From an uncultured bacterium (GTDB taxonomy: Bacteria > SAR324 > NAC60-12), in NCBI GenBank assembly GCA_964010765.1, contig CAXGMD010000020.1, positions 1 through 41,471 of the forward strand: a stretch of 41,471 nt of DNA, in the 5' to 3' direction. Position numbers and translations under genes: made by a program. The notes beneath the pieces are model-generated. The model was not told where the DNA came from. It saw only the letters and a program-made list of their open reading frames with translations, and did no database searches. Below, piece after piece: positions 16,014 to 41,471 of this stretch; the stretch's first letter is position 1, and each line of letters begins with the position of its first letter.

Positions 16014-16014
16014 T

Positions 16015-18374: not shown

Positions 18375-18375
18375 G

Positions 18376-18975: not shown

Positions 18976-18999
18976 ATCCCGACTGTTATCATTCTTAAA

Positions 19000-19989
19000 A
19001 TGAATCAAATTTTTCGATACGTTTCTTTCATACTGATTCTCTGGGCTACTTCTGATCAAACTCTCCGAGCAATCGAAGTTGAACAACCACTACCCCCTGA
19101 AGTCATTGAAGCAAAATTTCGATATCAGACTCTGCCAGAATATTCAGAAATTTGGGGTGCAGGCGGTAAAGACACATCCCTCAAGGAAATGGTACTTGGA
19201 AAATATTCAAACGAATTTACGGGATCCATCAATCAATCTGAACAATTGCTCAGGGTTGATCTGATTTATGGTTGGACAGAAACCTGGGCTCTTGGAGCAA
19301 CCATTCCATGGGAGCAGAAGAAGCAAAGTACCTCGCTTACATTCAATGGCATCAATAAAACTGCTGAGCTTCAATCTGTCGAAAAAAATGTCGCAAGTGA
19401 TTCACAAGCTGGTCTAGGAGATGTAGCGCTCTGGATGCGCTACAACCTCTCCTCAAGCTATCGCTGGCTCTGGACCCTTACTCCCAAATTAGTTTTTCCG
19501 ACCGGAGTAACTGGAAAGGCAAGAGGTTTCAAGCCTGTGGCCATTGGTGGTGGGCAAATGGATTTTGGACTGAAATTGCAGTCCCAATGGTATCCTCCCC
19601 AATCAGAGGGTGTGCTACAAATCGCTTCGGTTGAAGGGCTGAATCAACTAAAGGGAGAACGTGAAAATTTAGCTGGTGAGAAAGTCAGTTACCAGCCTGG
19701 CAACTCATTTGACATGAGATATGGTTGGACTCTAGAGGTCGAGAATTTTATGCTAGGAGCCGAGTTTTCTTGGTTTATTCAAGCACCAGATGCACTTGGT
19801 TCTGAAAGCGGGAGCACTCGGCGCCTGTATCAATGGAATTTTGAACTTGGTTACGGGAATTTAACTCAATTGGACCGTGAGCCACTTCCAGTACCATTTC
19901 AGGTTCGTTTTGGTGTTCTCAGGCCATTTATGGGCGAAAACGTTCCAAAAATATCTCAATATTATCTGAGCGGGGATGTCTATTTCTGA
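19000..19989 (+). CDS. Outer-membrane beta-barrel, COG4313/SphA-like transporter family
   Basis: Signal peptide; GLGDV.L..RY...LVFPTG...IGGGQ.DF pattern; amphipathic strands; C-terminal aromatic residue (VYF). Confidence 0.6.
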   Translation: MNQIFRYVSFILILWATSDQTLRAIEVEQPLPPEVIEAKFRYQTLPEYSEIWGAGGKDTSLKEMVLGKYSNEFTGSINQSEQLLRVDLIYGWTETWALGATIPWEQKKQSTSLTFNGINKTAELQSVEKNVASDSQAGLGDVALWMRYNLSSSYRWLWTLTPKLVFPTGVTGKARGFKPVAIGGGQMDFGLKLQSQWYPPQSEGVLQIASVEGLNQLKGERENLAGEKVSYQPGNSFDMRYGWTLEVENFMLGAEFSWFIQAPDALGSESGSTRRLYQWNFELGYGNLTQLDREPLPVPFQVRFGVLRPFMGENVPKISQYYLSGDVYF

Positions 19990-20311
19990 GACTACTACTC
20001 TTCGATCCATCAGAAAATTTTGGAGAGCTACTTTATTTATAATAGGGGCTTTCCACCTCTCAGCCTGCAAAACGCAGAACAACCCAATCTCTCACCCCTA
20101 TTATCATGAATACCCGACTACACAGGAAGAAAGGGTTACTGAAATTTGTAACCACGTTGCAGCTTCACATTTTGTGGTAGAAAAACGCATGGTTTACTTC
20201 AGGAAAGCAGGTACAAAAGATGATATCAACATGCCTCACTACAACACCGCATTACCCGATGGATACTACTTCTGTAGCAATATTTTACTCCCAAAATCTC
20301 ATCTTGAGTAA
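19976..20311 (+). CDS. Small hypothetical lipoprotein
   Basis: Basic then hydrophobic N-terminus with lipobox LSAC; fills the gap before the convergent gene. Confidence 0.5.
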   Translation: MSISETTTLRSIRKFWRATLFIIGAFHLSACKTQNNPISHPYYHEYPTTQEERVTEICNHVAASHFVVEKRMVYFRKAGTKDDINMPHYNTALPDGYYFCSNILLPKSHLE

Positions 20312-20316
20312 GACTC

Positions 20317-26605: not shown

Positions 26606-27655
26606 TCAGATTCTTTCTCCGGTTTGATTCGAAAACAAGAAGCATTTGCTAGCTTCAAACTGTACCCCAACAGCTTCATCGATATTTATTTTGAATTCTT
26701 TAGGGCCTCGTATCGTTAGCCGATCTGGCCCAACGTTGATGGTGGTCAAAGTCGATTCACCTGTTAACTCATGGGCGTAAACTGTTCCCTGAAGAACTCC
26801 TTTTTGAGCAGCACACAAAATTAAATCTTCAGGACGAATTCCAAGAGTTGCTTCTTCCAGGTTTGCTTCGTGGTTGATAGAGATTGAAAAATTTGGATGC
26901 TGAAAGTTGTTATCGTGAAGTTTTCCTTTCATTAAATTCATTGGTGGAGATCCAATAAATCCTGCTACGAAAAGATTTGCAGGATCATTGTAGATTTCTT
27001 CAGGTGGTCCCAGCTGCGAAATGATTCCATGATCCATCACTGCTACACGATCCGCCAGAGTCATTGCTTCAATTTGATCGTGTGTTACATAAACAGTTGT
27101 GATCTTCAGTTCATGCTGCAAATGCTTCAGTTCCGCACGCATTGTCACACGAAGTTTGGCATCAAGATTCGAAAGAGGCTCATCCATCAGAAAAACTGTT
27201 GGAGTCCTGACTATTGCTCTGGCCAAGGCAACTCTTTGACGTTGACCTCCGGAAAGTTCTCTGGGCTTGCGTTCAAGCAAATGATCCAATTGAACTTTTT
27301 CAGCAGCTTGCCGCACTTTTTCTGAATGCAGAGACTTGGGAACTTTACGGACTTTCAGTGGGTAGCGAATATTTTCATAAACGGACAGATGTGGATACAA
27401 ACCGTAGTTCTGGAAGACCATTGCTACATCACGATCCTTTGGAAGGTCGTCATTGACTTTACGATCACCAATAAAAACCTCTCCAAGGGTTGGTTCTTCG
27501 AGGCCGGCAATCATTCTCATCGTGGTTGTTTTGCCACATCCTGAGGGCCCCAACAGCACCAAAAATTCCTGATCCTCAATCAATAGGCTCAGATCTCTGA
27601 CTGCAACAAATTCATTCCAGCGCTTCGTAATACCTTTTAAGGTCACAGATGCCAT
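26606..27655 (-). CDS. CUT1 sugar ABC transporter ATP-binding protein (MalK/UgpC-like)
   Basis: GPSGCGKT, VFQNY, LSGGQRQR, DEPLSNLDAKLR, VTHDQ, FIGSPPMN. Confidence 0.95.
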   Translation of the reverse strand: MASVTLKGITKRWNEFVAVRDLSLLIEDQEFLVLLGPSGCGKTTTMRMIAGLEEPTLGEVFIGDRKVNDDLPKDRDVAMVFQNYGLYPHLSVYENIRYPLKVRKVPKSLHSEKVRQAAEKVQLDHLLERKPRELSGGQRQRVALARAIVRTPTVFLMDEPLSNLDAKLRVTMRAELKHLQHELKITTVYVTHDQIEAMTLADRVAVMDHGIISQLGPPEEIYNDPANLFVAGFIGSPPMNLMKGKLHDNNFQHPNFSISINHEANLEEATLGIRPEDLILCAAQKGVLQGTVYAHELTGESTLTTINVGPDRLTIRGPKEFKINIDEAVGVQFEASKCFLFSNQTGERI

Positions 27656-27668
27656 CAGTAAGTCCTAC

Positions 27669-28496
27669 TTATCTCACTGCGCCAAGGGTCATACCTTGGA
27701 CAAAATGTTTCTGGATGATCATTGCCAACCCAAACATTGGCAGCATGATTAGAATGCCAGCCGCAGAAATGAGATGCCACAGGACGCCCTCCTCAGCGTG
27801 AAAAAGTGATAAGCCCACCGGCATCGTAACCGCCTTACTATTAGTAATGATCACAGCGAAAAGAAATTCATTCCAAGCCAGAATGAAACAGAAAATTGCT
27901 GCCGTTAAGATTCCAGGCAAAGCCATGGGCAAAACAATATTCCAAATCACCTGAAGTCGACTCGAACCATCAACTAGGGCAGCTTCCTCAGTATCCAAAG
28001 GGATGCCATCAATGAATCCTTTGATCATCCAAATAGCAAAGGGGAGGATCAACGACAAATTAACTAGGACTAAGGCAAGCCTTGTATCCAGCAAACCCAA
28101 ATCTCTAAACAGAAGAAAGTAGGGAAGCACAATCACGACAGCTGGTACAAACTGAGTAGATAAGATCATCAGGAACATCGTGCGCTCGAATCTCAGCCGA
28201 AATCTTGAGAAGCTGTAAGCTGCCATTGTTGCCATTGGAATGGCAACAATAACGGTTGTTCCGGCAACTAGTGTGGAGTTGAGAAGTTTTTCGTGGAGAT
28301 TGTATGGGGAACGGAAAATTTCGTTGAAGTTGGCAAGTGTTGGAGTGAAGAGAAGCTTGAGTTGGAAAACATCAACTTGTTGTTTGAAAGCCCCGGAGGC
28401 AATCCAATAAATTGGAACGAGGATAACTACCGCTGCGCAAAGAATTAGCGCAAATTGAAAAAGATCCGCTACTTGTTTTCTAATTGAGTTGCCCAT
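27669..28496 (-). CDS. Carbohydrate ABC transporter permease (MalG-like)
   Basis: Six TM helices; EAA loop EEAALVDG; AWNEFLFA. Confidence 0.93.
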   Translation of the reverse strand: MGNSIRKQVADLFQFALILCAAVVILVPIYWIASGAFKQQVDVFQLKLLFTPTLANFNEIFRSPYNLHEKLLNSTLVAGTTVIVAIPMATMAAYSFSRFRLRFERTMFLMILSTQFVPAVVIVLPYFLLFRDLGLLDTRLALVLVNLSLILPFAIWMIKGFIDGIPLDTEEAALVDGSSRLQVIWNIVLPMALPGILTAAIFCFILAWNEFLFAVIITNSKAVTMPVGLSLFHAEEGVLWHLISAAGILIMLPMFGLAMIIQKHFVQGMTLGAVR

Positions 28497-29401
28497 CAGC
28501 GTTTCAGGAAAACAAGTTTCATGTAAAGCCAGGTCAACCCTAGCATTGGAATCACCAAAAGATAGGAAACTGCTGAGGCATAGCCCATATCATAATACTT
28601 GAACCCGTGGAAATAGATGTAATGAGCCAGAGTTTGGGTGGCATTACCTGGCCCTCCATTAGTCAACATGTAGACCTGATCAAACATCTTCAGGGAGAAA
28701 ATACTCTTCAGAATAATCCCCACTGCCAGAACGGGTATCAGAGCTGGCAAAGTAACATCTACAAATACTCTCCAACTGGAAGCTCCATCAATCATTGCCG
28801 CTTCTTGTGCGTCCCGGGGCACGTTAGCCAACCCTCCTATGAATACAAGCGTCAAATAGGGTGTCCAATGCCAAACGTCACTACCAATAATTGCAATCAG
28901 AGCGAAGGTAGGGTCTCCAAGCCAATCCACATCTGCCAGACCCGGCACTACGGCACCAAAGACAGCCTGAAACAAGCCAAAATCAGGTTGGAACATGAAC
29001 CGCCAAGAAATTCCAATCAGCGCAGGACTCATGGCAAATGGAAGAATGAGCAGTGTCCTCACAGTCAATCTGAACTTGCCTCCTGGAGCAAGCAGAAGAG
29101 CCAACCCCAAAGCCAAACCGACAGACACAATTACTGAAGCGAACATAAAAGTGGTTGTGACCTGCACGGAATTCCAGAGTAGGTCATCTTCTAGGGCTCG
29201 CTGGTAATTCTCTAAGAGGTAGGGCCAGGTTTCCCAGCCATCAAATTCTGGTTCCCAGAGAGGTCTCGACTCACGAGCTCGACTGAGTTTCCATTCTCGA
29301 AAGCTGAGCCAGAATGATTGGAGCAACGGCCAAAAGGACGTAACCAACACCAACACCAATGCCGGTAAAACGAATAGGTATTTAAGGTGTCGGTCACGCA
29401 T
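28496..29401 (-). CDS. Carbohydrate ABC transporter permease (MalF/UgpA-like)
   Basis: WHWTPY, EAAMIDGAS, FDQVYMLTNGGPG, GYASA. Confidence 0.93.
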   Translation of the reverse strand: MRDRHLKYLFVLPALVLVLVTSFWPLLQSFWLSFREWKLSRARESRPLWEPEFDGWETWPYLLENYQRALEDDLLWNSVQVTTTFMFASVIVSVGLALGLALLLAPGGKFRLTVRTLLILPFAMSPALIGISWRFMFQPDFGLFQAVFGAVVPGLADVDWLGDPTFALIAIIGSDVWHWTPYLTLVFIGGLANVPRDAQEAAMIDGASSWRVFVDVTLPALIPVLAVGIILKSIFSLKMFDQVYMLTNGGPGNATQTLAHYIYFHGFKYYDMGYASAVSYLLVIPMLGLTWLYMKLVFLKR

Positions 29402-29413
29402 TTTCAGACCGAA

Positions 29414-30730
29414 TCAGTAACCAGCTCTTCGTAGAATACGTTCTGCTCGCTGGCCTGCTTCTGCCATCAATTCCTCGACATTACCCCCCGTGGAGGCTTT
29501 TTGAATCGCATTCGAAAGCAAGTCTCCAATTTCAGGCCATTCAGGGATCTGAGGCATGATGTCAGAATTCGCAAGACTCAGAGCGGCGGCTTGCTGAATG
29601 TTGTCATTCGCAGCATTTACCTCAGGATCTACAAGGCTCTGCTTGTGGGTAACGACATTGTTCACGATTGCCTCACCCGCGACCTCTCGTTCAATGGCAT
29701 TTCTTCGGTCAAGCTCTGGATTAGAGAGCCACTTCAAGAACTCCCAGCTTGCCTCCTGGTTCTTTGAATGCTTCGAAATACTGAAAGGCATGCTGATCGC
29801 GTAAGTTACCGTTTCCCCCTTGTAGGAAGGCATCCCTATGAAAGCAACCTGCTCCTTCGACAAAGTAGACTGATTGGGGTTGTAGAATCCACTATAAGCC
29901 CACCACCAAACTGGGATCATAGCTGCTTTCCCTTGCGAAAATTGGATCCTTGCATCCTGTTCCACATTCGAAACAGCACCCTCCCCACAGATATCGTCAG
30001 AGGTATGCATTTCGATGTAGTCTTTGGTTGCTTGAATCGCTGCTGCAGTTGTCCAAGCGGGTTTCATTTGACTGTCAAAAACATCTCCTCCTGCTGCCCA
30101 GAGGTAGTTCAGCCAAATAAACAGGTTTTGTCTGTTGCCATCAGCCCCATAGTAACAGGCGAGTCCCCCAATTCCCTCTTTCTCCTTGATCATTTTCCCT
30201 GCGCTGACGACGTCAGCCCAAGTCTTTGGCTCACTCAGTCCATGCTTATCGAACAGATCTTTGCGATAGAACATTAACTGGGGATGGGCACGCAATGGGA
30301 ACCCTAAGGTTTCTCCCTGAAACATTGCACTCTTTTTAAATGCTTCAGGATAGCGATCCATGCTTATGCCATCTTGCTTTAACCATCCATCGATTGGTTG
30401 AAGCCAATAAGCATTTGCAGGCCCCCAGGAATCTAAATAGTTCACCACATCAAAATTACCATCAGCAGCTACTCCGACACTTGCTACCTTCTCCTGAAGG
30501 GAGACGAATGGGATATGAGTCCAATTAACAGTAATGCCTGTCAGGCTTTCAAACTCTTCATCCCGCAACTCGTAGGCTTTAAACTGTGGAGTGACAACCG
30601 AAAGAATATTTAAATTTGTACCAGCGTAAGGTTTTCCAGATTTAAGACCATAAGGAAGAATATTTTCAGCCGCAAACACGCTTGAAGCCATTAAGGAGCC
30701 ACACAAGAGGGCACAAAAGGTTTTCCACAT
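29414..30730 (-). CDS. Sugar ABC transporter substrate-binding protein (family 1)
   Basis: Signal peptide from ATG 30730 with GGAG upstream; FYRKDLF, PKTW, FSQGKAAM, WEFLKWL motifs. Confidence 0.9.
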   Translation of the reverse strand: MWKTFCALLCGSLMASSVFAAENILPYGLKSGKPYAGTNLNILSVVTPQFKAYELRDEEFESLTGITVNWTHIPFVSLQEKVASVGVAADGNFDVVNYLDSWGPANAYWLQPIDGWLKQDGISMDRYPEAFKKSAMFQGETLGFPLRAHPQLMFYRKDLFDKHGLSEPKTWADVVSAGKMIKEKEGIGGLACYYGADGNRQNLFIWLNYLWAAGGDVFDSQMKPAWTTAAAIQATKDYIEMHTSDDICGEGAVSNVEQDARIQFSQGKAAMIPVWWWAYSGFYNPNQSTLSKEQVAFIGMPSYKGETVTYAISMPFSISKHSKNQEASWEFLKWLSNPELDRRNAIEREVAGEAIVNNVVTHKQSLVDPEVNAANDNIQQAAALSLANSDIMPQIPEWPEIGDLLSNAIQKASTGGNVEELMAEAGQRAERILRRAGY

Positions 30731-30764
30731 TTTCAACTCCAAAAATTTATGAAAACAAAAAATG

Positions 30765-30923: not shown

Positions 30924-32201
30924 ATGATTCAGTATCTGAAAGAAGGGAGAAGTGCAGCAGATGCGAAGGCTGATCAATCAAAAGTTCGCCAGACTGTAGA
31001 ACAGATCCTTGCAGAGATAGAGTTGCGCGGGGACGCTGCTGTTCGGGAACTGGCTCAGAAATTTGATGGATGGACTCTTCCAAACTTCCGACTTAGTCCA
31101 GATGAAATTCAAGCTGCTTTAGGGGAGGTACCTAAATCTACCTTAGATGATATTCGCTTTGCCCAGACACAGATTCGTAATTTTGCCCAGATTCAGCGCT
31201 CAGCTTTACAAGATGTAGAAGTCGAAACGCTCCCAGGCGTTATTCTTGGCCATAAAAACCTCCCGGTAAACAGCGTCGGCTGTTATGTGCCTGGTGGGAA
31301 ATATCCAATGGTGGCCTCGGCTCACATGAGCGTGGTCACAGCAAAAGTTGCGGGAGTTCCGAGAATTATTGCATGTGCACCACCCTTTGAGGGCCGCCCA
31401 CATCCAGCAATCATTGCTGCAATGCACCTCGGTGGAGCTGATGAAATTTATTGTCTTGGGGGAGTGCAGGCAGTGGGGTCCATGGCTTTGGGAACAGAAT
31501 CGATAAAAGCCGTTGATATGTTAGTGGGGCCTGGAAATGCCTTTGTGGCAGAAGCGAAGAGGCAACTTTATGGTAGAGTCGGCATCGATCTTTTCGCTGG
31601 TCCCACAGAAACACTCATCATTGTTGATGAAAGTTGTGATGGGGAGCTTTGTGCTGCGGACCTGCTTGGCCAAGCTGAGCATGGTCTAAACTCGCCAGCA
31701 ATCCTTCTCACCAATTCTGAGAAACTCGCCAGAGAGACCATGGAAGAAGTCGAACGACAGCTAAAGATTCTTCCAACTGGCGAAATTGCTGGACAAGCTT
31801 GGCGGGATTTTGGACAAGTAATTGTCTGTGAAAGTTACGATGAAATGGTCACTAAAGCCGATGAAATTGCTTCTGAACACGTTCAAGTGATGACAAGGGA
31901 TCCCAACTTTTTCTTGGAAAGGATGACCAACTACGGAGCTTTATTCCTTGGCAAGGAAACGAATGTCGCCTACGGAGATAAAGTTATCGGAACGAACCAC
32001 ACACTCCCAACAAACAAGGCAGCTCGTTACACTGGAGGATTGTGGGTTGGTAAATTCCTCAAGACCTGCACCTACCAGTGGGTGAAGACACCTGAAGCGA
32101 GTACTCTAATTGGTGAATACTGCTCGAGACTCTGTGCTCTTGAAAACTTTGCGGGCCATAAGGAACAAGCAGACATTCGTGTTCGGCGCTACAAGCAGTG
32201 A
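30924..32201 (+). CDS. hisD: Histidinol dehydrogenase-family protein, probably a non-biosynthetic paralog (HpsN-like)
   Basis: [43 protein letters not shown]. Has GDKVIG and [13 protein letters not shown] instead of the canonical HisD GDYxAG and YPSSVLM; catabolic gene context. Confidence 0.85.
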
Positions 32202-32223: not shown

Positions 32224-33285
32224 GTGGCTGAACGAAAAGTGAACGCAACCTCCACACAAGTGGCAAAATTAGCCGGGGTCTCTCAGTCAGCTGTTTCAAG
32301 AGCATTCACCCCTGGGGCAAGCATCGCCGAGAGTACCAGAAGAAAGGTTCTGCAGGCTGCCAGGAAGCTTGGCTATCAACCGAATGCGATCGCAAGAAGT
32401 CTAAGTACCAAGCGCTCTAAGATTATCGGGATCGTGATCGCTAATGTGACTACAAATCCCTTCTACCCGGAAGTCTTGGATGCCCTTAGTCGCCAATTCC
32501 AACAAAGGGGGCAACGAGTCATGCTCTTTGTTGTCACACGTGATCAAAACTTGGACGACATCCTCCCCCAACTTCTGGAATATCGTGTTGATGGAATTCT
32601 TCTCACAGCGGCAACACTCAGTTCCGCAATGGCTCATGAATGCGCACGCTTGGGTGTTCCAGTAACGTTGTTCAATCGTTCTGTTCCAGATGCCCATGCA
32701 AGCTCTTTTTGTTGCGACAATATTGAGGGGGGCCGAATGGCCGCAAGGCTTTTAATGAAATCTGGACATCATCAAGTAGCTTTCGTAGCAGGGAGTCATG
32801 ACACATCCACAAGTCTTGAGCGGGAAAGAGGATTCAGAGAAGAATTGAAAAAACATGGACTGGAACCCTATATCGAAATGGGGAATTTCAGCTATCATGG
32901 TGCATTTGACGCAGCTAGAAGATTAATGAACCTTCCAAAATCACCTGACGCAGTTTTTTGCGCTAATGACATCATGGCAATCGGGGTTTTGGATGCGCTT
33001 TGCCATGCCGAGCAGAAAAGAGTGCCTGAAGATGTATCCGTTATTGGTTTTGATGATATTCCAATGGCCGCCTGGCCCAGCTACAATCTAACTACCATTC
33101 GGCAACCCATTGAAAGAATGATCGATTCCGCAGTCAATGATCTTCTTGATCGCATAAACCAAGACAACATGGCCCCAAAGCAAGAGTTAGTTGCTGGAGA
33201 TTTAGTTGTCCGTTCTTCAGCAAAGTTACCCTCAGGACTTTCATCTGGTTGGGTAATTTCAACTTCTGAAACCAGAAATGTCTGA
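32224..33285 (+). CDS. LacI-family transcriptional regulator
   Basis: HTH VAKLAGVSQSAVSRAF, LGYQPNAIARSL, NPFY, FCANDIMAIG, VIGFDDI, LTTIRQP. Confidence 0.95.
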   Translation: MAERKVNATSTQVAKLAGVSQSAVSRAFTPGASIAESTRRKVLQAARKLGYQPNAIARSLSTKRSKIIGIVIANVTTNPFYPEVLDALSRQFQQRGQRVMLFVVTRDQNLDDILPQLLEYRVDGILLTAATLSSAMAHECARLGVPVTLFNRSVPDAHASSFCCDNIEGGRMAARLLMKSGHHQVAFVAGSHDTSTSLERERGFREELKKHGLEPYIEMGNFSYHGAFDAARRLMNLPKSPDAVFCANDIMAIGVLDALCHAEQKRVPEDVSVIGFDDIPMAAWPSYNLTTIRQPIERMIDSAVNDLLDRINQDNMAPKQELVAGDLVVRSSAKLPSGLSSGWVISTSETRNV

Positions 33286-34207
33286 GCATTCAACAATGAA
33301 ACTCATTGACGCTCACCACCATCTCTGGGAACCACAGGCGTTGCCTTATGGGTGGCTGCGCCAGCTTGGCCAACCAAAGCCATTCGGCGATCCCACGGCG
33401 ATTCAACGAAATTATCTTCCTAAAGATTACCTCGACGATGCTGGACAAGCTGAAGACGTTGAGTTGATTTCGACCGTGCATGTTCAGGCGGATGGAGCGC
33501 TGCCAGATCCGGTAGCTGAAACTCTTTGGTTGGAGAGCCTCAAATCCACTATCCCTTCCGCAATTGTTGGATTCGCTGACTTGGCAAGTCCTGATTTACC
33601 CAAAGTTTTGGAAGGACATGCCCAATCTCCTCGATTCCGTGGTGTTCGTCAAATCATCGGAAAACTGGCTGACCGCCCGGATCTTTCTTTCACCTTAGAC
33701 GATCTACTTGAAAAATCTGCCTGGCAAAATGGGTTTTCCCTTTTGAAGGAATTTAATCTGAGTTTCGATCTGCAACTCTATCCTGAACAAATGGAAGGTG
33801 CTGCTCAGTTTTTGGGAAAGCATCCGGAAACAAAAGTCGTGATCGATCATGCCGGTTGTCCTTATGACCAAACTGATCAAGGTCTTGAACTTTGGGGAGT
33901 TGGTGTAGAACAGCTTTCTCAACTCGAGAACGTGCATGTCAAACTTTCAGGCTTTGGGATGTATACCAAGGATTGGGATGCTGAAAATACAGAAAGAATT
34001 TTTCAAAAGTTATATCAAACTTTTGGAGCAGGGCGCTTGATGTGGGGGAGCAACTTTCCTGTTGATCGACTGATGCAGAGTTATGGACATTGTGTAAAGC
34101 AACTTCAGACTTGGTTAGCTTCCCTTTCTAAAGATGAGCAAGATGATATAGCTTGGCGCTCAGCTGCGAAGTTTTATCGTCTGGACATAGGCAAGTCTCA
34201 TGGCTGA
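33278..34207 (+). CDS. Amidohydrolase_2 family protein (COG3618, sugar-lactonase-like)
   Basis: IDAHHHLW, FRGVRQ, SFDLQ, IDHAG, VKLSG, MWGSNFPVD. Confidence 0.85.
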   Translation: MSEHSTMKLIDAHHHLWEPQALPYGWLRQLGQPKPFGDPTAIQRNYLPKDYLDDAGQAEDVELISTVHVQADGALPDPVAETLWLESLKSTIPSAIVGFADLASPDLPKVLEGHAQSPRFRGVRQIIGKLADRPDLSFTLDDLLEKSAWQNGFSLLKEFNLSFDLQLYPEQMEGAAQFLGKHPETKVVIDHAGCPYDQTDQGLELWGVGVEQLSQLENVHVKLSGFGMYTKDWDAENTERIFQKLYQTFGAGRLMWGSNFPVDRLMQSYGHCVKQLQTWLASLSKDEQDDIAWRSAAKFYRLDIGKSHG

Positions 34208-35252
34208 TCTTGAACTACGAAAAATTTGGAAGCGCTGGGGTGATTTTGTTGCTGTCAGGGATTTTGAGCTGGAGATCTCTGACCGGGAATTCTTGGTCCT
34301 GCTAGGACCTTCAGGTTGTGGCAAAACGACCACAATGAGGATGATCGCTGGGTTAGAAGATCCGACTTCGGGGGAAATTTTCATCGGTGGGAGAAGGGTC
34401 AACGACTTGGAGCCCAAGGATCGGGATGTGTCGATGGTCTTCCAGAACTACGGTTTGTATCCAAATCTGAATGTCTACGACAACATCTGTTTTCCGCTCA
34501 AGGTCAGAAAAGTTCGGAAGGCAGAGCAGGATCAGCGTGTTCGAAAGGCTGCCGGCATGGTCGAACTCAACGACTTGCTGGACCGACGCCCTGCCGAACT
34601 ATCTGGGGGTCAAAGACAACGGGTTGCTCTGGCTCGAGCCATTGTTCGGGAACCCAATGTCTTTCTGATGGACGAACCACTCTCCAATCTGGATGCGAAG
34701 CTGAGGATCTCGACTCGGGCTCAGATCAAAAACCTCCAATATGAGCTACAGGTCACCACGGTTTACGTAACTCACGACCAAACAGAAGCAATGACTCTCG
34801 CTGACCGAGTTGTTGTGATGAATCACGGAGAAATTCAACAAGTTGGGTCTCCCTTGGAGATTTACGATCGGCCCCAAAATGTTTTTGTTGCAGGTTTCAT
34901 TGGAAGCCCTCCGATGAACCTGATCGAGGGGAGCATTCAGGAAGGCCAATTCGTTTGTGAACTGAACAAAGGTTTTCCGCTATCGGGACCTGAAGGCCCG
35001 ATAACGCTTGGTTTTCGTGCAGAGGACGCCGAAATCATCTCGGAAGGTGGTCAATTGAAGGGGCTTGTATACGCAATGGAATTGCTGGGCGATGCCACCC
35101 TGATCACCTTGCGAACCGGGGGCAGCTTGGTGTGTGTCAAGATGCCGAAAGATTTTCGAGCCACGATGGGACAGGAACTGCCGGTCTTTTTAAAACCAGC
35201 TGCCTGCCATCTTTTTGAGAAGGATTCAGGACACCGTCTGAATAAATCCTGA
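34200..35252 (+). CDS. CUT1 sugar ABC transporter ATP-binding protein (second copy)
   Basis: GPSGCGKT, LSGGQRQR, DEPLSNLDAKLR, VTHDQ, FIGSPPMN. Confidence 0.95.
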   Translation: MADLELRKIWKRWGDFVAVRDFELEISDREFLVLLGPSGCGKTTTMRMIAGLEDPTSGEIFIGGRRVNDLEPKDRDVSMVFQNYGLYPNLNVYDNICFPLKVRKVRKAEQDQRVRKAAGMVELNDLLDRRPAELSGGQRQRVALARAIVREPNVFLMDEPLSNLDAKLRISTRAQIKNLQYELQVTTVYVTHDQTEAMTLADRVVVMNHGEIQQVGSPLEIYDRPQNVFVAGFIGSPPMNLIEGSIQEGQFVCELNKGFPLSGPEGPITLGFRAEDAEIISEGGQLKGLVYAMELLGDATLITLRTGGSLVCVKMPKDFRATMGQELPVFLKPAACHLFEKDSGHRLNKS

Positions 35253-35283
35253 ATCCAACAATTTTTTTCCTACGAGAGGAACC

Positions 35284-36501
35284 ATGATGAAAAAATTCCT
35301 GACGATCGCGGTCACCCTGTCAGCCTTCGTGGCTGTTCCAATGATAGGCTTCGCCGCCTGTGATTTTAAACCTTCCAGTAAGGTGAGTTTACTGGCAAAC
35401 AGTTTTGCTGCCTGGAAAGCCGTCTCTGATGCAATGAGCGAATGTGGAAATTTTGAAGCAGAATTAGATGCAGAGTTTAGGAAAAAACAGCCGGATGCAT
35501 TTGCTGCAAATCCTTCACTTTACCAACTTGGTGGGGTTTCCAATGGAACGATTCAACCTCTACTGTCTGCTGGCACCATTCGGCCACTTAATGATCTGGT
35601 AGCCAAGTATGGTAAAGATCTTCAACCCAATCAGTTGATTCGTATCAATGGACAAATCATGGCGATCGCTATGATGGTGAACAATCAACACTTGATGTAC
35701 CGAGAGGATATCTTCAAATCTTTGGGATTGGAGGTGCCAACTACTTACTTTGAGTTGCTTTCAGCAGCGGACAAAGTAGCTGCTTCGGGAAAAGTTCAAT
35801 ATGCTTTGGGCGGAACCTACAAAGCCGGATGGAACTTAGCTGAGGAGTTCGTGAATATGTACATGGGTATGGGAGGCGATTTTTTTGATGGATCCAAACC
35901 ATCTATAAATAACGTAATGGGTATCCGCACACTTGAAATGATGCGTAATCTAACCCACTACATGGATCCAGAGTACCTTGTTGCAGATTCCACTTATGTT
36001 CAGCAGCAGTTCCAACAGGGTAAAATTGCAATGGCAGTTTTGTGGGCTACGAGGGCCGCAGCAATGGATGATGCCAAGGAAAGCCAGGTTGTAGGAAAAG
36101 TTAAGATGGCTGCCGCACCATCCCCTGTATCGGGAGCGCTGCCTGCCTCAACACTCTGGTGGGATGGAGTTGTGCTTGCCAAGAATATGACAGACCAGCA
36201 AGCGGATGAGGCCTTTCAGCTATTGATGGAAGGAATCGACCGTGAAATGGTCACTAATAACAACGATGCTGCTGTCTGGTTGATCAATGGCTATAAACCT
36301 GGCCCCATGGCAATGGGGGCCGCTGAAACAGCTGAAAACGGTGCCTTACCTTATCCAAATGGAGTTGAAATGGGTTTGATGCACACCGCTCTCGGAAATA
36401 ACGTTGCAGATTTCCTTAAAGGCAAAGAGACAGCTGAGCAAACGCTTTTGGACATTGAGGCAGAATACACAACCGCAGCCAAAGAAAAAGGATTGCTCTA
36501 A
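35284..36501 (+). CDS. Sugar ABC transporter substrate-binding protein
   Basis: RBS GAGGA; signal peptide; LMYREDIF, PTTY, FQQGKIAM; position within an ABC cassette. Confidence 0.88.
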   Translation: MMKKFLTIAVTLSAFVAVPMIGFAACDFKPSSKVSLLANSFAAWKAVSDAMSECGNFEAELDAEFRKKQPDAFAANPSLYQLGGVSNGTIQPLLSAGTIRPLNDLVAKYGKDLQPNQLIRINGQIMAIAMMVNNQHLMYREDIFKSLGLEVPTTYFELLSAADKVAASGKVQYALGGTYKAGWNLAEEFVNMYMGMGGDFFDGSKPSINNVMGIRTLEMMRNLTHYMDPEYLVADSTYVQQQFQQGKIAMAVLWATRAAAMDDAKESQVVGKVKMAAAPSPVSGALPASTLWWDGVVLAKNMTDQQADEAFQLLMEGIDREMVTNNNDAAVWLINGYKPGPMAMGAAETAENGALPYPNGVEMGLMHTALGNNVADFLKGKETAEQTLLDIEAEYTTAAKEKGLL

Positions 36502-36516
36502 AGCAAGTTCGATCCT

Positions 36517-37545
36517 ATGAAGCATCGGACTTTTATTGGATTTATTGGCCCATCTTTGTTTTTAATGGCCCTGTTTATTGCAGGGCCATTATTCAGTGTT
36601 TTCTGGCAGAGTCTTCATGTCACTCAACCAATCTATATTCAGGTGGAGACTGAAGTTTGTACTCCCGGTTTCCTATCCCAAAAGTGTACAACTGAAATTC
36701 AAACTCAACCTCAAATGGGGCCTGATGGCAAGATCATCACAGAAACTAAATTTGCTGGTTTTGAAAGTTATCGATCTTTACTCAAACCGGAATTATTTTT
36801 AAAACACTTCTCGCAACAGGAATGGTCTGAATTAAATAATATCAATTTTTACAAGGCACTACGCTTCACACTCACATTCACCTTGATAACACTCCCCATC
36901 GTCCTAATTCTGGGATTGCTCATCGCCCTGAGTGTCAACCAAGCTTTGCAATCACTTCGAGGGCCAATCATCTTCATTTCGTTACTTCCTTTTGTGATTA
37001 CACCCGTTATTGGCGCTCTATCCATTCGTTGGCTTTTTGTTGGAGACGGTATTCTTACCACTTTATTTGAGTGGTTATTGGAAAGAGACATATCCATGTT
37101 CGCGCAGGGTTGGACCATTGAAATTTTGATGTTGGGCTATCGGGTTTGGCACGTTGCACCATTTGCCTTCATTGTATTTTATGCCGGTCTTCAAACGGTT
37201 AGTCGTGATACTCTTGAAAGTGCCATTGTCGATGGAGCGACCCGCTGGCAAAGGCTAAGGCTGGTGATTTTACCTCACCTAAGTCCGCTGATACTCTTTG
37301 TAAGCATTATCCATCTAATGGATTCCTACCGGGTTTTCGAAGAGGTTATTGGTTTCCGCAGTGAAGCCCACGTTATCTCACTCCAGTGGCTCACCTACGA
37401 TCTACTAATTCCAGATGACACGGGCAACCGTCTAATCAGCAGAGCTTCTGCCTCCTCGATGCTGACCATGATTGGCATAATTCTTCTGTTGATCTTCCCG
37501 TTGCGCCGAAGTTGGCGTGAGCATAAGCTGCTTAAAAGGGGTTAA
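36517..37545 (+). CDS. Carbohydrate ABC transporter permease (MalF-like) with extended periplasmic loop
   Basis: WHVAPF, ESAIVDGA, DSYRVF; Cys-containing insert after TM1. Confidence 0.88.
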   Translation: MKHRTFIGFIGPSLFLMALFIAGPLFSVFWQSLHVTQPIYIQVETEVCTPGFLSQKCTTEIQTQPQMGPDGKIITETKFAGFESYRSLLKPELFLKHFSQQEWSELNNINFYKALRFTLTFTLITLPIVLILGLLIALSVNQALQSLRGPIIFISLLPFVITPVIGALSIRWLFVGDGILTTLFEWLLERDISMFAQGWTIEILMLGYRVWHVAPFAFIVFYAGLQTVSRDTLESAIVDGATRWQRLRLVILPHLSPLILFVSIIHLMDSYRVFEEVIGFRSEAHVISLQWLTYDLLIPDDTGNRLISRASASSMLTMIGIILLLIFPLRRSWREHKLLKRG

Positions 37546-37546
37546 G

Positions 37547-38695
37547 ATGCAAATGAACATCGAACACCCTAAAAGCATCCAACTTTCAAAATCCCTCAAG
37601 ATACTCAGCAACGGATTTCTGGGCATTTGGTGTCTGATCGCGGTTTTTCCGCTGCTCTGGATTACGTTGATGAGCCTGAAGTATCCTCTTGATGCTTTCT
37701 CAGCCAATCCGCTGGTGGTGATTTTTGGCCCAGGAACACTATCCGCTGGTGCTTCAATCAACTTATTCGATTTGCTGTTGGTAATTCTTTGGGTGGTGGT
37801 GGCATCTCTGGGAATAAAACGCTGGCAGGCAGAAAAAAATCTGGGATCCAAAAATTGGTTGTACCTTGTTATCTCAATCGGATGGCTTTTTGCTGCTGTT
37901 GTCTTTACTGAGCTTAGTGTTGCTTTGAAGGAGCTGCTGGGAGCCGACTTTTTCTTAATGACTCCCTTGTTGGGGATGACCACTGAGCATTTCCAATCAG
38001 TTTGGATCGAACAGGAATTCTACAGACAATTCTTGAATTCACTGCTTGTAACTACCGGAGTCGTCAGCATTTCGCTGACAGTGGGAACATTGGCGGGCTA
38101 TGGATTGGCTCGCTCTGGTTCAAACTGGGCATTCTGGATTCTCATGACTGCCCTGGTTTTCCGGGCTCTACCACACTCTGTGCTGGTTTCTGGCTACCTC
38201 CCATGGTTCATCAATTCAGCCGAATGGCTACGACCTATTTTTGGCGAAGCCGCACCGACCTTATATGGCCAACCTTGGGCGATCATTGTGGTTCTCGCAT
38301 CGATCAACCAGCCTTTCACAATCTGGATGCTCCGTTCATTCTTTCAGAACATCCCAAGGGAATTGGATGAAGCGGCGCGTATTGATGGCTGTTCGCATGG
38401 AGAAGCCTTTGTGCGAGTGATAATTCCAGTCATGTGGCCGGGAGTCCTGACAGCAGGACTTTTCAGTTTTTTACTGGCTTACAACGACTACTTGGTTGCG
38501 GCTCTGTTGCTGGATGCCCAAAACCAGACGATGGTTCCCGCGATTTCTGGATACTTCAATCGTGAAACAACCTCGACAGACCAGGTGGAAGCCGTCGCTG
38601 CAGCAGTATCGATTACCGCACCACTTTTTGTTTTGGTAATGGTCTTTCAAAAGCAACTCGTTTCTGGCCTGACTCAAGGGGCCGTCAAGGGTTGA
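37547..38695 (+). CDS. Carbohydrate ABC transporter permease (MalG-like) with hydrophobic insertion
   Basis: FLNSLLVT, IWMLRSFFQNIPRELDEAARIDG, LAYNDY, GLTQGAVKG; ATG 37547 preferred. Confidence 0.88.
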   Translation: MQMNIEHPKSIQLSKSLKILSNGFLGIWCLIAVFPLLWITLMSLKYPLDAFSANPLVVIFGPGTLSAGASINLFDLLLVILWVVVASLGIKRWQAEKNLGSKNWLYLVISIGWLFAAVVFTELSVALKELLGADFFLMTPLLGMTTEHFQSVWIEQEFYRQFLNSLLVTTGVVSISLTVGTLAGYGLARSGSNWAFWILMTALVFRALPHSVLVSGYLPWFINSAEWLRPIFGEAAPTLYGQPWAIIVVLASINQPFTIWMLRSFFQNIPRELDEAARIDGCSHGEAFVRVIIPVMWPGVLTAGLFSFLLAYNDYLVAALLLDAQNQTMVPAISGYFNRETTSTDQVEAVAAAVSITAPLFVLVMVFQKQLVSGLTQGAVKG

Positions 38696-38723: not shown

Positions 38724-39230
38724 GTGGAAGAAAACGATAACAAGCAACTAATCGCAGATATGTATGGAGCCATGAACAAGAATGTACTTGGCCTGATGAA
38801 GAAATATTGGTTTGAAGACATGGTTTGGGAAGGGCCCGCTGGAGTGGGTACCAAACATGGATTGCAAGAGTTTGAAGAAGACTACCGTCGAGATTTCATC
38901 AATGCCTTCCCAGACAAGCATGCTACGGATTTGGTGCGTGTTGCTGAGGGGGATTGGGTAGCTGGAGCTGGTCATCAAGACACTACTTTTGCCAATTCAT
39001 GGCTGGGTATTCCACCGACCGGCCAGAAGATTCGCATTCGCTATATGGATTTTTGGAGGATTGCCAAAGATGAGTCAACTGGAGAAAGAAAACTCGCTGA
39101 AAATCTTGTGTTGATCGATATTTTGGGGGTCCTCGAACAAGCTGGTTATGATGTTGAAAAAGTCCTTAAGTTCGTTGGCTCTAAATCCCCTCAATTTTTT
39201 TTGAACCCTCCAGAATCAGATAATGAATGA
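38724..39230 (+). CDS. SnoaL-like / ester cyclase family protein (single domain)
   Basis: WEGPAG, AFPD, AEGDWV, WLGIPPTG, DFWR, EN.VLID..GVLEQ.G; GTG start. Confidence 0.8.
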   Translation: MEENDNKQLIADMYGAMNKNVLGLMKKYWFEDMVWEGPAGVGTKHGLQEFEEDYRRDFINAFPDKHATDLVRVAEGDWVAGAGHQDTTFANSWLGIPPTGQKIRIRYMDFWRIAKDESTGERKLAENLVLIDILGVLEQAGYDVEKVLKFVGSKSPQFFLNPPESDNE

Positions 39231-40279
39231 GCATATTTAAATTCAATAGTGAGCTAAATCAGCAGCATAAACAGTTAGTTTGGGACTATTGGCATAACGC
39301 AGCCTGGCAAAATCCTGCGGACATTCAAAAGCATCTGCTGCAATACCAGAATCAGGATGCCAATTGGTTTGGTTTTTCGCCGTTCAACCAATTGTCTTCA
39401 CCAACTGCACAGGTTGATGAATTTTGGCTTCCGCTCTACAAGGCGTTCTCGGATCTTCAGCGGCAGACCCATATCTTTATCGGGGGCAGTTCCAGTGGCA
39501 AAGCCGATGGCAGTCCAGATAATCGTTACTGGGTGGGAGGAACTGGGCTTTTCAAGGGGGTGTTTCAACAAGATTGGCAAATCAGTCACTTAAGAATTCC
39601 TGCCAACCAGCAACCTATCCAGATCCGTTGGGCAGAATTCTGTCGATTTGAAGAAGCAAGGATTGTTGAGACTTACCTGATGCTCGATCTCGTTGATTTC
39701 TTTGAACAGATCGGGCATCCCATTCTGCCACCCTGTAGGGGAGTGCCAGGAATTTACCCAGTACCGATTACTCAAGATGGGGTGCTGAGAGACATGCAGG
39801 AACAAGCTGTTACCGAGGCGAGTCTTCAATTGATTCGAGATTTCCTGTTTGAGGGCCTGAACCTTTATGATCAACATAACCTCAAAAGTATGGGGGTTGC
39901 GGACTTTTTTCATCAGGATGTCAAATGGTACGGTCCCGGAGGAATTGGCGGTTGTCTCAGTCTGAAAGCTTTTGAGGATAACCATCAAAAACCTTGGCTG
40001 ATTGCTTTTCCAGACCGCAAAGTTTGTGACTTGGATTCGCTCTTTGCTGAAGGAAACTACGTTGCTAGTTCTGGTTGGAAGGGGGTAATAGCCAAACATA
40101 CTGGGCCATACCTTGGACATCCTGCAAGTGACAAGGATATCTGCTTCAACGGTATCGATTTCTGGAGAAGCGAATCCGGGAAGTACGTCGAAAACTGGGT
40201 CTTTGTAGACATGATCCATCTGTTTGGACAGATGGGAATTGATCTATTAAAACGCTTGAATTTTGAGGGAGAGCGCTGA
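39227..40279 (+). CDS. SnoaL-like / ester cyclase family protein (two domains)
   Basis: N-domain AFSDL...IPA...F.RFEE.RIVE...D; C-domain WYGPGGIG, AFPD, AEGNYV, HTGPYLG.PAS, DFWR, ENWVFVD. Confidence 0.8.
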   Translation: MSIFKFNSELNQQHKQLVWDYWHNAAWQNPADIQKHLLQYQNQDANWFGFSPFNQLSSPTAQVDEFWLPLYKAFSDLQRQTHIFIGGSSSGKADGSPDNRYWVGGTGLFKGVFQQDWQISHLRIPANQQPIQIRWAEFCRFEEARIVETYLMLDLVDFFEQIGHPILPPCRGVPGIYPVPITQDGVLRDMQEQAVTEASLQLIRDFLFEGLNLYDQHNLKSMGVADFFHQDVKWYGPGGIGGCLSLKAFEDNHQKPWLIAFPDRKVCDLDSLFAEGNYVASSGWKGVIAKHTGPYLGHPASDKDICFNGIDFWRSESGKYVENWVFVDMIHLFGQMGIDLLKRLNFEGER

Positions 40280-41247
40280 TGTCAGCACCAGAATTGGAAT
40301 TTGCTGATCTGACAGATTTTATTCTGAGGATCACCGAGAGAATTTGGGAAGAGAGGCACGTTGAAGACATCCGCAAATACTACACTGCGGATTGTCGGGT
40401 AGAGACACCAGCAGGGGTTACTTCGAATGTGGAAGCAGTCATTCAATCCACTTTGGAAACGTTGAATCAGTTTCCTGACCGTCAACTGCTGGGTGAAGAT
40501 GTAATCTGGTCCGAAGACCAACCTGAATATTTCTACTCTTCTCATCGAATCTTCTCCACCATGACTCACCTTGGCGAGGGGAACTTTGGCAAAGGTACCG
40601 GAGCAAAAATTGGTGTTAGGACGATTGCTGACTGTGCTGTCTACAAAAATCAGATTTACGATGAATGGCTTGTTAGAGATCATGCAGCAATCCTGAGCGA
40701 TATAGGTCTGCCACTACAAGAAGTTGCGCTTTCACTGGCGGAAGCAAGAGCTGAATCTGGGCAGAAACCTATTCACTTCCATAGTCTTGAGAATCGACCA
40801 AAAGTTGACGGAATAAACTTGTCAGACACAGATGCTGCTCAGCATTATCTCCGAGGTTACAGAAGCTTGTTTGATGAATACGCCTTCGGCTGGGTTAAAG
40901 AGAGCTATGACAGGGCTGCACAAATTTATGCTCCAGGGGGGATAAATCTTCAGGGCTGGGACAGGATAACCGATTTCTGGTTGGGACTCAGAGCCAGTTT
41001 AGGTCAAGTAAAGTTTACAGCCGACCACTTGATTCATCGTGAGGATCCAAGAGAGCCTCAGCGGCTCGCCCTGCGCTGGACTGTAACCGGACAGCATGAA
41101 GGAAGAGGCCGATATGGAGAACCACGAGGCAACCCACTTCATTTTTTGGGTATCAGTCACGCAGAATTACGCAAAGGAAAGATTTTACGCGAATGGGTTT
41201 TGCTGGATGAACTGGCAATTTGGCAGCAAATTTTTTCTAAATTTTGA
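40279..41247 (+). CDS. SnoaL-like / NTF2-fold protein (two domains)
   Basis: IWEER, FPDRQLLGEDVIW, THLGEGNFGKGTG, DEWLVRD; second domain RWTVTGQHEG.G.YG.P.G...REW.LLDE. Confidence 0.78.
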   Translation: MSAPELEFADLTDFILRITERIWEERHVEDIRKYYTADCRVETPAGVTSNVEAVIQSTLETLNQFPDRQLLGEDVIWSEDQPEYFYSSHRIFSTMTHLGEGNFGKGTGAKIGVRTIADCAVYKNQIYDEWLVRDHAAILSDIGLPLQEVALSLAEARAESGQKPIHFHSLENRPKVDGINLSDTDAAQHYLRGYRSLFDEYAFGWVKESYDRAAQIYAPGGINLQGWDRITDFWLGLRASLGQVKFTADHLIHREDPREPQRLALRWTVTGQHEGRGRYGEPRGNPLHFLGISHAELRKGKILREWVLLDELAIWQQIFSKF

Positions 41248-41280
41248 GTTGGTCAATTTACTTTCGGACAGGAATTTCTG

Positions 41281-41471
41281 ATGGATATTGTTCGCTTCAA
41301 TGAACTGATCCCCTGTCGCACCGCCTTCATCGATGCGCACACCCCAGGTTCGGATCAGAAAGAAAATTACACCATCATTGGCGCAGGGGTCTCAGAATCA
41401 CCTGATCAGCACGTTCATCTCAGTAAAACTCCCGGTTTCAATATTGGGGCAGCCGCACAACCTGCAGGGTG
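41281..41471 (+). CDS. Probable cupin-domain protein (3' truncated by window)
   Basis: Not in the supplied ORF track. Hand translation MDIVRFNELIPCRTAFIDAHTPGSDQKENYTIIGAGVSESPDQHVHLSKTPGFNIGAAAQPAG is open to the window end; AGGA upstream. The cupin call is from recalled similarity; the metal motif lies beyond the window. Confidence 0.6.
   Translation, partial: MDIVRFNELIPCRTAFIDAHTPGSDQKENYTIIGAGVSESPDQHVHLSKTPGFNIGAAAQPAG

Follow-up and report, generated by a model that had tools for sequence, protein, structure and literature searches.

Enzymes of the SnoaL family (PF07366), among them SnoaL, AknH, SnoaL2, AclR, KstA15, ChaU and IdmH, are polyketide cyclases and hydroxylases that work without a cofactor, and in known enzymes of the SnoaL fold conserved polar and acidic residues serve cofactor-free acid/base chemistry. 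The catalytic aspartate of SnoaL (Asp121) lies on a C-terminal strand, and limonene-1,2-epoxide hydrolase (LEH) uses an Asp-Arg-Asp triad assisted by Tyr/Asn water ligands. That two NTF2 domains can act on one substrate, either fused or paired as separate chains, has its precedent in Lsd19 and MonBI-MonBII. Both the fold and the idea of a fused pair are already known. Here we analyse three adjacent SnoaL genes from an uncultured SAR324 bacterium (lineage NAC60-12), located on a stretch of 41,471 nucleotides (contig CAXGMD010000020.1 of assembly GCA_964010765.1), which we call the window. Their products share the fold, the sequence family and the presumed lack of a cofactor with the SnoaL-family cyclases, as well as an N-terminal N-K helix and the motifs AFPD, EGD-V and GI-PTG. 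Unlike those cyclases, they are encoded in an importer operon with no polyketide context, two of the three are tandem fusions, their conserved residues are largely polar or charged, and identity to solved members is 11-24%. On the basis of the comparisons presented below, we hold with moderate confidence that the three proteins are catabolic enzymes of a LacI-controlled regulon; the specific chemistry that they would carry out is far less certain than this general claim.

The three genes code for proteins of 168, 350 and 322 amino acids (Table 1) and are translationally coupled, the first two through an ATGA overlap (ATG 39227-39229 on TGA 39228-39230) and the last two through TGATG (TGA 40277-40279 shares a base with ATG 40279-40281). 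All three products exceeded the Pfam SnoaL gathering cutoff of 28.4 bits. BLASTP paired the 168-aa protein with the C-terminal half of its 350-aa neighbour (146 columns, 30% identity, E 2e-20), and this alignment included the pairs WEGPAGVG/WYGPGGIG, AEGDWV/AEGNYV and ENLVLID/ENWVFVD plus the common AFPD and DFWR. The open reading frame (ORF) list and the sequence therefore agree with the coupled array described in the first-pass annotation, and the SnoaL assignment and the alignment that it had made by eye were reproduced by Pfam and BLASTP, respectively. The GTG start of the 168-aa gene is credible because N6, K7, L9 and D12, all encoded 5' of the first ATG, were invariant in 20 aligned sequences; in addition, AGGA is found 7 nt upstream of the GTG. 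The closest solved relative of the 168-aa protein was PDB 8ysb, and sequence searches of the PDB yielded no match for the 322-aa protein or for the cupin encoded next to it. Another PDB entry, 8kaa, leads to work on chartreusin and kosinostatin biosynthesis. The names given to these families in the protein atlas are generic ('ester cyclase', 'cupin').

Pfam located one SnoaL stretch in the 350-aa protein, in its C-terminal domain only, and two in the 322-aa protein. The N-terminal domain of the 350-aa protein was not detected by Pfam, but profile-profile comparison disclosed its SnoaL kinship, since hhalign aligned the 168-aa family profile to positions 6-165 of the 350-aa family with a probability of 99.7 (E 2e-26). 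The same profile showed no detectable relation to the 322-aa family at the profile level (probability 1.3). AlphaFold2, run on 20-sequence alignments, modelled each long protein as two alpha+beta NTF2 barrels, and for the 322-aa protein the mean predicted local distance difference test (pLDDT) value was 90.9, with all five models between 88 and 91. When single domains were compared by Foldseek, they matched AclR, SnoaL2, KstA15 and IdmH with target-normalised TM-scores of 0.71-0.87 (0.82-0.87 for SnoaL2, AclR and KstA15), and LEH variants were also among the matches. Models and matches alike display the alpha+beta cone fold, with three helices on a curved sheet. For the whole chains of both long proteins, the best PDB matches were Lsd19 and the MonBI-MonBII pair (E ~1e-9 to 1e-10). 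Pfam, the hhalign profile match, the two-barrel models and the two-domain fold matches thus agree with the earlier estimate of about five domains, and establish a 1 + 2 + 2 arrangement across the three proteins.

To look at the relationships among these domains, we built a maximum-likelihood tree with eight sequences of each of the five domain types. Both domains of the 322-aa family separated from a group formed by the 168-aa protein and the two domains of the 350-aa family (support 100/99). Within this group, the 168-aa protein was placed beside the N-terminal domain of the 350-aa family (99/99), at a point where long branches meet and for which the program issues a warning.

Residue conservation is also consistent with catalysis. 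In the 168-aa family, 66 of the 168 columns were invariant, many of them polar (20 sequences, with 19 homologues 66-90% identical), and 86 columns were invariant in the 350-aa family; invariant Asp, Glu, His, Arg, Tyr and Asn residues were abundant in all three families. An acidic pair on neighbouring strands occurs in all five domains. In the single-domain protein it is D109/D132; the 350-aa protein contributes E137/D154 and D311/D328, the N-terminal domain of the 322-aa protein contributes D118/D134, and E305 and D310 are invariant in the C-terminal domain of the latter. In the sequence alignments, an invariant Asp of each domain falls within an E-x(4,5)-D strand motif. The 168-aa protein also keeps R106, D109, D132 and Y54, an invariance seen in the sequence alignment that does not imply a spatial match to the LEH triad. 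The pattern would be typical of enzymes, and the pockets, which the first-pass annotation had expected to hold conserved polar residues, are unlikely to be inert.

Table 1. Coordinates of the predicted operon in the window
Feature	Position	Strand	Remarks
Candidate LacI-family operator, perfect 16-bp palindrome TTGCATAGCTATGCAA	30878..30893	.	Ends 30 nt before ATG 30924
HpsN-like, HisD-family four-electron alcohol dehydrogenase	30924..32201	+	Histidinol_dh 461.8 bits; probable first operon gene
LacI-family regulator	32224..33285	+	Pfam LacI + Peripla_BP_3; best NCBIfam RbsR, CytR, PurR, below cutoffs
Amidohydro_2 enzyme, lactonase-like (hydratase or decarboxylase possible)	33278..34207	+	PF04909 111 bits
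ABC importer ATPase, UgpC/MalK type with TOBE domain	34200..35252	+	NCBIfam UgpC 450 bits, cutoff 432
Periplasmic solute-binding protein, family 1, sugar type	35284..36501	+	SBP_bac_1, SBP_bac_8
ABC permease 1	36517..37545	+	BPD_transp_1; best NCBIfam UgpA, GlcT
ABC permease 2	37517..38695	+	BPD_transp_1 70.9 bits
SnoaL gene 1, single-domain SnoaL/NTF2 protein, 168 aa	38724..39230	+	GTG start; SnoaL 55.4 bits
SnoaL gene 2, tandem SnoaL/NTF2 protein, 350 aa	39227..40279	+	Domains ~1-170, ~195-350; SnoaL 69.1 bits
SnoaL gene 3, tandem SnoaL/NTF2 protein, 322 aa, separate subfamily	40279..41247	+	Domains ~1-145, ~178-322; SnoaL 70.1 bits
Cupin gene start, metal-binding (307 aa in relatives)	41281..41471	+	First 63 codons; window end cuts ORF

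The array lies directly behind an ATP-binding cassette (ABC) importer, as had been reported, although the unit is larger than first described, since it begins about 8 kb upstream and runs beyond the end of the window. From 30924 to that end, all genes are on one strand and overlap or are separated by gaps of 0-35 nt, so that the dehydrogenase, LacI regulator, Amidohydro_2 enzyme, importer, SnoaL trio and cupin constitute one operon, to which relatives add genes for a MetE-like protein and a short-chain dehydrogenase/reductase (SDR). The palindrome 30 nt before the ATG at 30924 suggests this position as the operon start. Promoter and terminator scans returned fewer sites than shuffled sequence and no trustworthy terminator within the operon. 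The importer (34200-38695) has a CUT1-type make-up, with a UgpC/MalK ATPase carrying TOBE, a family-1 binder and two BPD_transp_1 permeases. Its ATPase matched ABC_tran, OB_MalK and TOBE_2 in Pfam, and the PDB chains nearest to the binding protein were 5iai ('sugar ABC transporter'), the sulfoquinovosyl-glycerol binder SmoF and a sorbitol binder. In permease 2, relatives align from residue 7 or 32 on, and the start may be a few codons downstream. The only PDB relative of the Amidohydro_2 protein at E<=1e-10 was 4dlf, and its score against NCBIfam L-fucono-1,5-lactonase (114 bits) is far under the cutoff of 400.

Contigs of the SAR324 cluster match the window at 88-95% protein identity, and in three of them (L003, L005 and L006; L numbers are our locus labels) the sequence past the window end encodes a 307-aa cupin, a 373-aa Meth_synt_2-like protein and an SDR. 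The 63 codons present in the window are 97-100% identical to the start of that 307-aa protein, which scores 27.5 bits with Cupin_2 (cutoff 27.2) and whose family keeps an HxH...E...H motif; the cupin-like gene noted earlier at the end of the array is a cupin gene, an identity that is confirmed through these relatives only. The MetE-like family keeps HxC...E...C, the zinc-ligand motif of MetE. In L005, the SDR is followed (15995-21514) by genes for a CHAD-domain protein, a ParA/MinD-like ATPase and a carboxyltransferase plus biotin-carboxylase protein of >1080 aa, which probably have no connection with the operon. Permease 1 is 100% identical to that of L003 and 77-86% identical to those of L004-L006, whereas the flanking genes are 85-95% identical in all four, and from sequence identity this segment looks like a locally divergent or recombined one. 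Elsewhere the window encodes housekeeping functions, and a further ABC importer operon of sugar type lies on the minus strand (26606-30742; binder 29414-30742, two permeases, MalK-type ATPase 26606-27655). As this operon is divergent from the HpsN-like gene, the 180-bp region that holds the palindrome may control both units.

We then considered how widely the proteins and their neighbours are distributed. Searches of a set of 5.8 billion proteins returned 744 homologues of the 350-aa protein, mostly 50-57% identical, full length and spread across phyla; 2681 of the 322-aa protein; and 322 of the 168-aa protein, those listed outside the SAR324 clade being mostly ~67-77% identical. Their source records use only the names 'ester cyclase' or 'NTF2 family protein', and the source taxa include Chloroflexota, Woeseiaceae, Acidimicrobiia, Polaribacter and Caldilineaceae. 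Against representatives clustered at 50% identity, the 168-aa profile matched 1204 clusters at E<=1e-3, of which 48 reached E<=1e-30. Among the top 150 representatives, most were 320-350 aa long and carried two matched stretches (a few had three), so that the fused pair is the usual architecture. One protein of 1177 aa (P0507) carried six such stretches.

For the gene neighbourhood, 185,579 species genomes were scanned. This yielded 440 loci with a relative of the 350-aa protein, of which we kept the best 80 (53 of them at least 10 kb long) and grouped the neighbours, from our own ORF calls, into BLAST clusters each named from one representative (Table 2). At least one of six partner families (322-aa family, LacI, SDR, MetE-like, bicupin and HisD-like) was present in 47 of the 53 long loci, and a transporter of some type in 38. 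Less frequent neighbours, among the 80 loci, were a 753-aa arylsulfatase-like sulfatase and a TPR-sulfotransferase (seven each), SMP-30 lactonase and GMC oxidoreductase (six each), the L-fucose-isomerase and creatininase families (four each), Ldh_2 (three), and URO-D and MTHFR-like proteins (two each).

Table 2. Gene families found near homologues of the 350-aa protein
Family	Loci of at least 10 kb (of 53)	All loci (of 80)
322-aa family	28	29
LacI	26	28
SDR	29	32
MetE-like	24	26
Bicupin	24	25
HisD-like (HpsN-like)	24	24
Amidohydro_2	14	14
HpcH/HpaI aldolase	14	16
PcaD-like alpha/beta hydrolase	14	16
RraA-like	9	10
ABC components	17	21
SSF symporter	16	18
TonB-dependent receptor	12	12
Any transporter	38	44
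At least one of 322-aa family, LacI, SDR, MetE-like, bicupin, HisD-like	47	53

The loci also bear on the suggestion of the first-pass annotation that the SnoaL proteins might form a heteromeric complex. A single-domain gene was seen in 24 of the 80 loci, comprising orthologues of the 168-aa protein (>=54% identity) in 13 and a second single-domain type (33-39%) in 11 more, and 21 of 25 complete single-domain genes adjoin a double-domain gene. A family of 187-aa ORFs with no Pfam match ('f20', in L011, L012, L014, L039, L042 and L079) overlies single-domain SnoaL genes detected by tblastn and is probably spurious antisense; because these ORFs mask some genes, the count of 24 is a lower bound. 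In a Saprospiraceae metagenome-assembled genome (MAG), a 691-aa protein (L037, 1783-3858) is an in-frame fusion of a 322-type (18-330) and a 350-type (351-691) protein, with four NTF2 domains. Genome context is therefore mixed with respect to a 168/350-aa complex and suggests that the two-domain pair may itself be the functional unit.

The palindrome TTGCATAGCTATGCAA was spotted by eye and is unique within the window. A pattern search with its core, TGCAT-N4-ATGCA, found 14 sites in the 80 loci (1.05 Mb), about 19-fold more than in fifty composition-preserving shuffles (mean 0.74, maximum 2), and most of them fall into promoter regions of this gene set. Five of these sites lie <=45 nt upstream of a HisD-like gene (L003-L006, L078), two directly upstream of LacI (L014, L030) and one between divergent SnoaL genes (L075), the other six being less clearly placed. 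The motif precedes an HpsN-like gene or LacI in SAR324, Woeseiaceae and Betaproteobacteria, and in Ruegeria it stands between a divergent NTF2 gene and an ABC ATPase gene. This distribution supports a single LacI-type regulon conserved across classes, with the palindrome as the predicted binding site.

The dehydrogenase at the head of the operon scored 404.6 bits against HpsN, the (R)-DHPS (2,3-dihydroxypropane-1-sulfonate) 3-dehydrogenase (PDB 8v35, full length), and 273.1 bits against the best true HisD. It also passes the NCBIfam hisD model (449 bits, cutoff 244), so annotation pipelines will name it histidinol dehydrogenase. The structural study of HpsN describes a G-R-Y-A/S-H mark in that enzyme, with His126 binding the sulfonate, and G-S-A-P-L in HisD (PMC11382572). 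At this position the window enzyme reads G-K-Y-P-M, and therefore lacks the HpsN signature, while it retains the Glu-His catalytic pair and the Asp-Lys loop residues found in HpsN. The pattern G-[KR]-Y-P-[ML] was present in 21 of 25 cluster-linked homologues; two had near variants and two did not match. DHPS was considered as a substrate and rejected, given that the sulfonate-binding His is absent and that none of hpsOP, suyAB, xsc or cuyA, the desulfonation genes looked for, was near the HpsN-like genes in the examined loci. Since the motif differs while the catalytic residues stay, these proteins appear to form a third branch of the HisD/HpsN family. As judged from the sequence, the enzyme probably oxidises a terminal CH2OH beside CHOH or CHNH2 to a carboxylate in a non-sulfonate substrate.

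Cultured organisms also carry the cluster, as revealed by a tblastn search of plasmids (28 records). On plasmid pTHAF33_a of Ruegeria sp. THAF33, the annotated genes are an amidohydrolase, an NTF2 protein, four ABC genes, an ester cyclase, hisD, an ester cyclase, an SDR, LacI, an ester cyclase, a cupin, an S-adenosylmethionine (SAM) methyltransferase, a 'cobalamin-independent methionine synthase II family protein', an alpha/beta hydrolase and an RraA-family protein. In the archaeon Halobellus limi, a plasmid locus (L085) encodes IclR, an ABC system, a MetE-II protein and five proteins named 'ester cyclase' (four tandem, one single); GcvT-family aminomethyltransferase, VOC and aldolase genes are nearby. 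The plasmid of Vibrio pelagius ATCC 25916 (L082) holds only an ABC importer and four tandem NTF2 genes, and this cluster adjoins sarcosine oxidase genes (soxBDAG) and purU. The sox/purU and GcvT/VOC neighbours hint at methyl-group removal. Considering all loci, neighbours handling methyl or C1 groups recur (MetE-like, URO-D, MTHFR-like, GcvT-family, sox and purU), and this recurrence is the sole reason to suggest a methylated substrate.

We believe that these results are best explained by uptake and breakdown of a carbohydrate-type compound, as indicated by LacI, the UgpC/MalK ATPase, the family-1 binder, the SSF and TonB-dependent alternatives of other phyla, and the L-fucose-isomerase-family and gluconolactonase neighbours. 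The imported compound would be polar and carbohydrate- or polyol-like, and may bear methyl or sulfate groups. Inside the cell, the SnoaL proteins would subject this compound, or keto or lactone intermediates derived from it, to cofactor-free acid/base catalysis, by ring or lactone opening, isomerisation/epimerisation or beta-elimination of water, methanol or sulfate, with the two-domain proteins working as built-in pseudo-dimers. In the order of steps that we propose, their products would pass to NAD-dependent oxidation and lactone hydrolysis and, in other lineages, also to HpcH- and RraA-type pyruvate aldolases. The SDR, the Amidohydro_2 or SMP-30 lactonase, the HpcH/GarL-type aldolase and the sugar-type transporter and regulator are features shared with oxidative sugar and uronate pathways. 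The present loci differ from these pathways in that, among those examined, neither a sugar kinase nor a dehydratase of the enolase-superfamily or IlvD type is recurrent. Nor do we know of any oxidative sugar or uronate pathway that includes tandem SnoaL proteins, a bicupin, a MetE-like zinc protein or an HpsN-like enzyme. Given sugar-type uptake, lactonase, dehydrogenase and aldolase partners, and no enolase- or IlvD-type dehydratase, the SnoaL proteins may supply the non-redox steps of a sugar-acid-like route.

The proposal that the array is catabolic rather than biosynthetic is supported by the partner families in 47 of 53 loci and by the transporters, LacI, lactonases, dehydrogenases and aldolases nearby, and it stands as a probable reading. 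Several observations weigh against it. The 80 loci are the top-scoring ones and not a random sample, include six near-copies of the window and rest on our own gene calls, and six of the 53 long loci lack all six partner families in the vicinity of the homologue. With respect to structure, the best model of the 350-aa protein had a mean pLDDT of 82.7, the other four being of low confidence (54-63). The Lsd19 and MonB matches reached target-normalised TM-scores of only 0.35-0.42, with a root-mean-square deviation (rmsd) of 15-18 A and 10-14% identity, values which suggest that domain packing differs from that in Lsd19 and MonB. We found no published study of this cluster or of tandem catabolic SnoaL proteins in open-access PMC or bioRxiv. 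Moreover, the bicupin, PcaD-like, RraA, HpcH, Amidohydro_2, GMC and sulfatase neighbours would equally fit breakdown of aromatic compounds or lignin fragments, and a modular polyketide synthase (PKS) is adjacent in one of the 80 loci (22 unassigned ORFs of >=700 aa scanned).

A rival reading is an aromatic substrate derived from lignin or phenolics, perhaps a phenolic with sulfate or methoxy groups or a glycoside of it. The SnoaL/NTF2 proteins would then be stereospecific cofactor-free lyases or decarboxylases, the bicupin, with its HxH...E...H metal ligands, a ring-cleaving dioxygenase, the MetE-like, URO-D and GcvT-like proteins demethylases, and PcaD-like, Amidohydro_2, RraA and HpcH proteins a meta-cleavage-type lower pathway. 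NTF2-fold lyases acting on lignin dimers are known, and the counts of PcaD-like (16/80), HpcH/HpaI-like (16/80), RraA-like (10/80), arylsulfatase-like (7/80) and GMC (6/80) genes agree with such a route, as do the GcvT- and VOC-family neighbours in Halobellus and the URO-D and MTHFR-like genes in two loci each. However, the regulator, ATPase, binding protein and SSF transporters are all of sugar type, the L-fucose-isomerase-family and gluconolactonase neighbours indicate sugars, and characterised HpsN relatives act on small diols; furthermore, dioxygenases of the Rieske, extradiol (LigAB-type) or intradiol classes do not recur in the loci, nor does a CoA-ligase/thiolase lower pathway, and we rate an aromatic substrate as unlikely.

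We consider it distinctly improbable that the substrate is an epoxide or strained ether, opened by NTF2 epoxide hydrolases or ring-openers and receiving a thiol from the MetE-like zinc enzyme. The idea draws on the top two-domain fold matches, the epoxide-opening Lsd19 and MonBI-MonBII, on the LEH variants among the single-domain matches and on the MetE-like neighbour with its HxC...E...C zinc motif (26/80 loci), and epoxyalkane:CoM (coenzyme M) transferase, which is kin to MetE, does add a thiol to an epoxide. Against it, TM-scores of 0.3-0.4 reflect the generic tandem NTF2 fold, and SnoaL2-, AclR- and KstA15-type structures fit the single domains better; no NCBIfam epoxide-handling model was matched, no epoxide-forming monooxygenase recurs in the loci, and the polyether PKS and epoxidase of the Lsd19 and MonB systems are absent from the window and from the recurrent neighbours. 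Equally improbable, in our opinion, is a non-catalytic role as small-molecule binders (cytoplasmic carriers, chaperones of a reactive intermediate or importer-attached regulators). The NTF2 fold is often non-enzymatic, the Vibrio pelagius cluster joins an importer to four tandem NTF2 genes with no obvious enzyme, and paralogues are numerous, with up to six SnoaL-family genes per locus; yet invariant polar residues abound in all three families, the profile matched was the enzyme-derived SnoaL one and not the generic NTF2 profiles, and enzyme genes are interleaved in most loci. A function as cyclases of polyketides or other secondary metabolites, which the Pfam 'SnoaL-like polyketide cyclase' matches and the name 'ester cyclase' would imply, we judge very improbable. 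In a Chloroflexota MAG (L022, 10281-19877), a 3199-aa modular PKS does lie directly downstream of the 350-aa homologue. However, homologues are not found mainly in biosynthetic clusters, as shown by the single PKS among 80 loci (judged from ORFs of at least 700 aa), and scans of ORFs of at least 120 aa in the 41-kb window (a few without a Pfam match) disclosed no PKS, nonribosomal peptide synthetase (NRPS), tailoring or resistance gene, in keeping with the earlier statement that no polyketide genes are nearby. An importer operon with LacI and 50-77% identity across phyla are, in addition, unlike the patchy distribution of biosynthetic clusters.

A LacI-controlled catabolic regulon remains our preferred explanation. 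In open-access PMC and bioRxiv we did not find in print the catabolic gene set, the tandem-SnoaL signature, the non-sulfonate HpsN-like branch or the shared operator; a report of 'two SnoaL' in rhizobia (PMC12337268) is unrelated to this cluster. Much more tentatively, the tandem SnoaL proteins may represent a new enzyme class that needs no cofactor and works on carbohydrate-like compounds, with the opening of a lactone or ring, or the beta-elimination of methoxy or sulfate, as examples of its reactions. They would then mark an unrecognised global pathway for an abundant polar metabolite carrying methyl or sulfate groups, with a non-sulfonate HpsN branch and a MetE-like zinc alkyl transfer, a possibility that we put forward as speculative.

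SnoaL-fold proteins are routinely named 'ester cyclase' or 'polyketide cyclase', and here the fold is the signature of an uptake-and-breakdown set. Its carriers are SAR324, Woeseiaceae, Chloroflexota, Bacteroidota, Roseobacters, vibrios and a haloarchaeon, and the set occurs in abundant lineages of ocean, sediment, wastewater and freshwater. Because cultured Ruegeria, Vibrio and Halobellus strains carry the cluster, the question is directly testable. If the substrate were identified, thousands of mis-named genes would receive a function, a third specificity branch of the HisD/HpsN dehydrogenases would be defined, and a likely new cofactor-free chemistry would be added to primary catabolism. 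The cluster would also become a new marker of how SAR324 and other uncultured groups turn over a dissolved organic compound.

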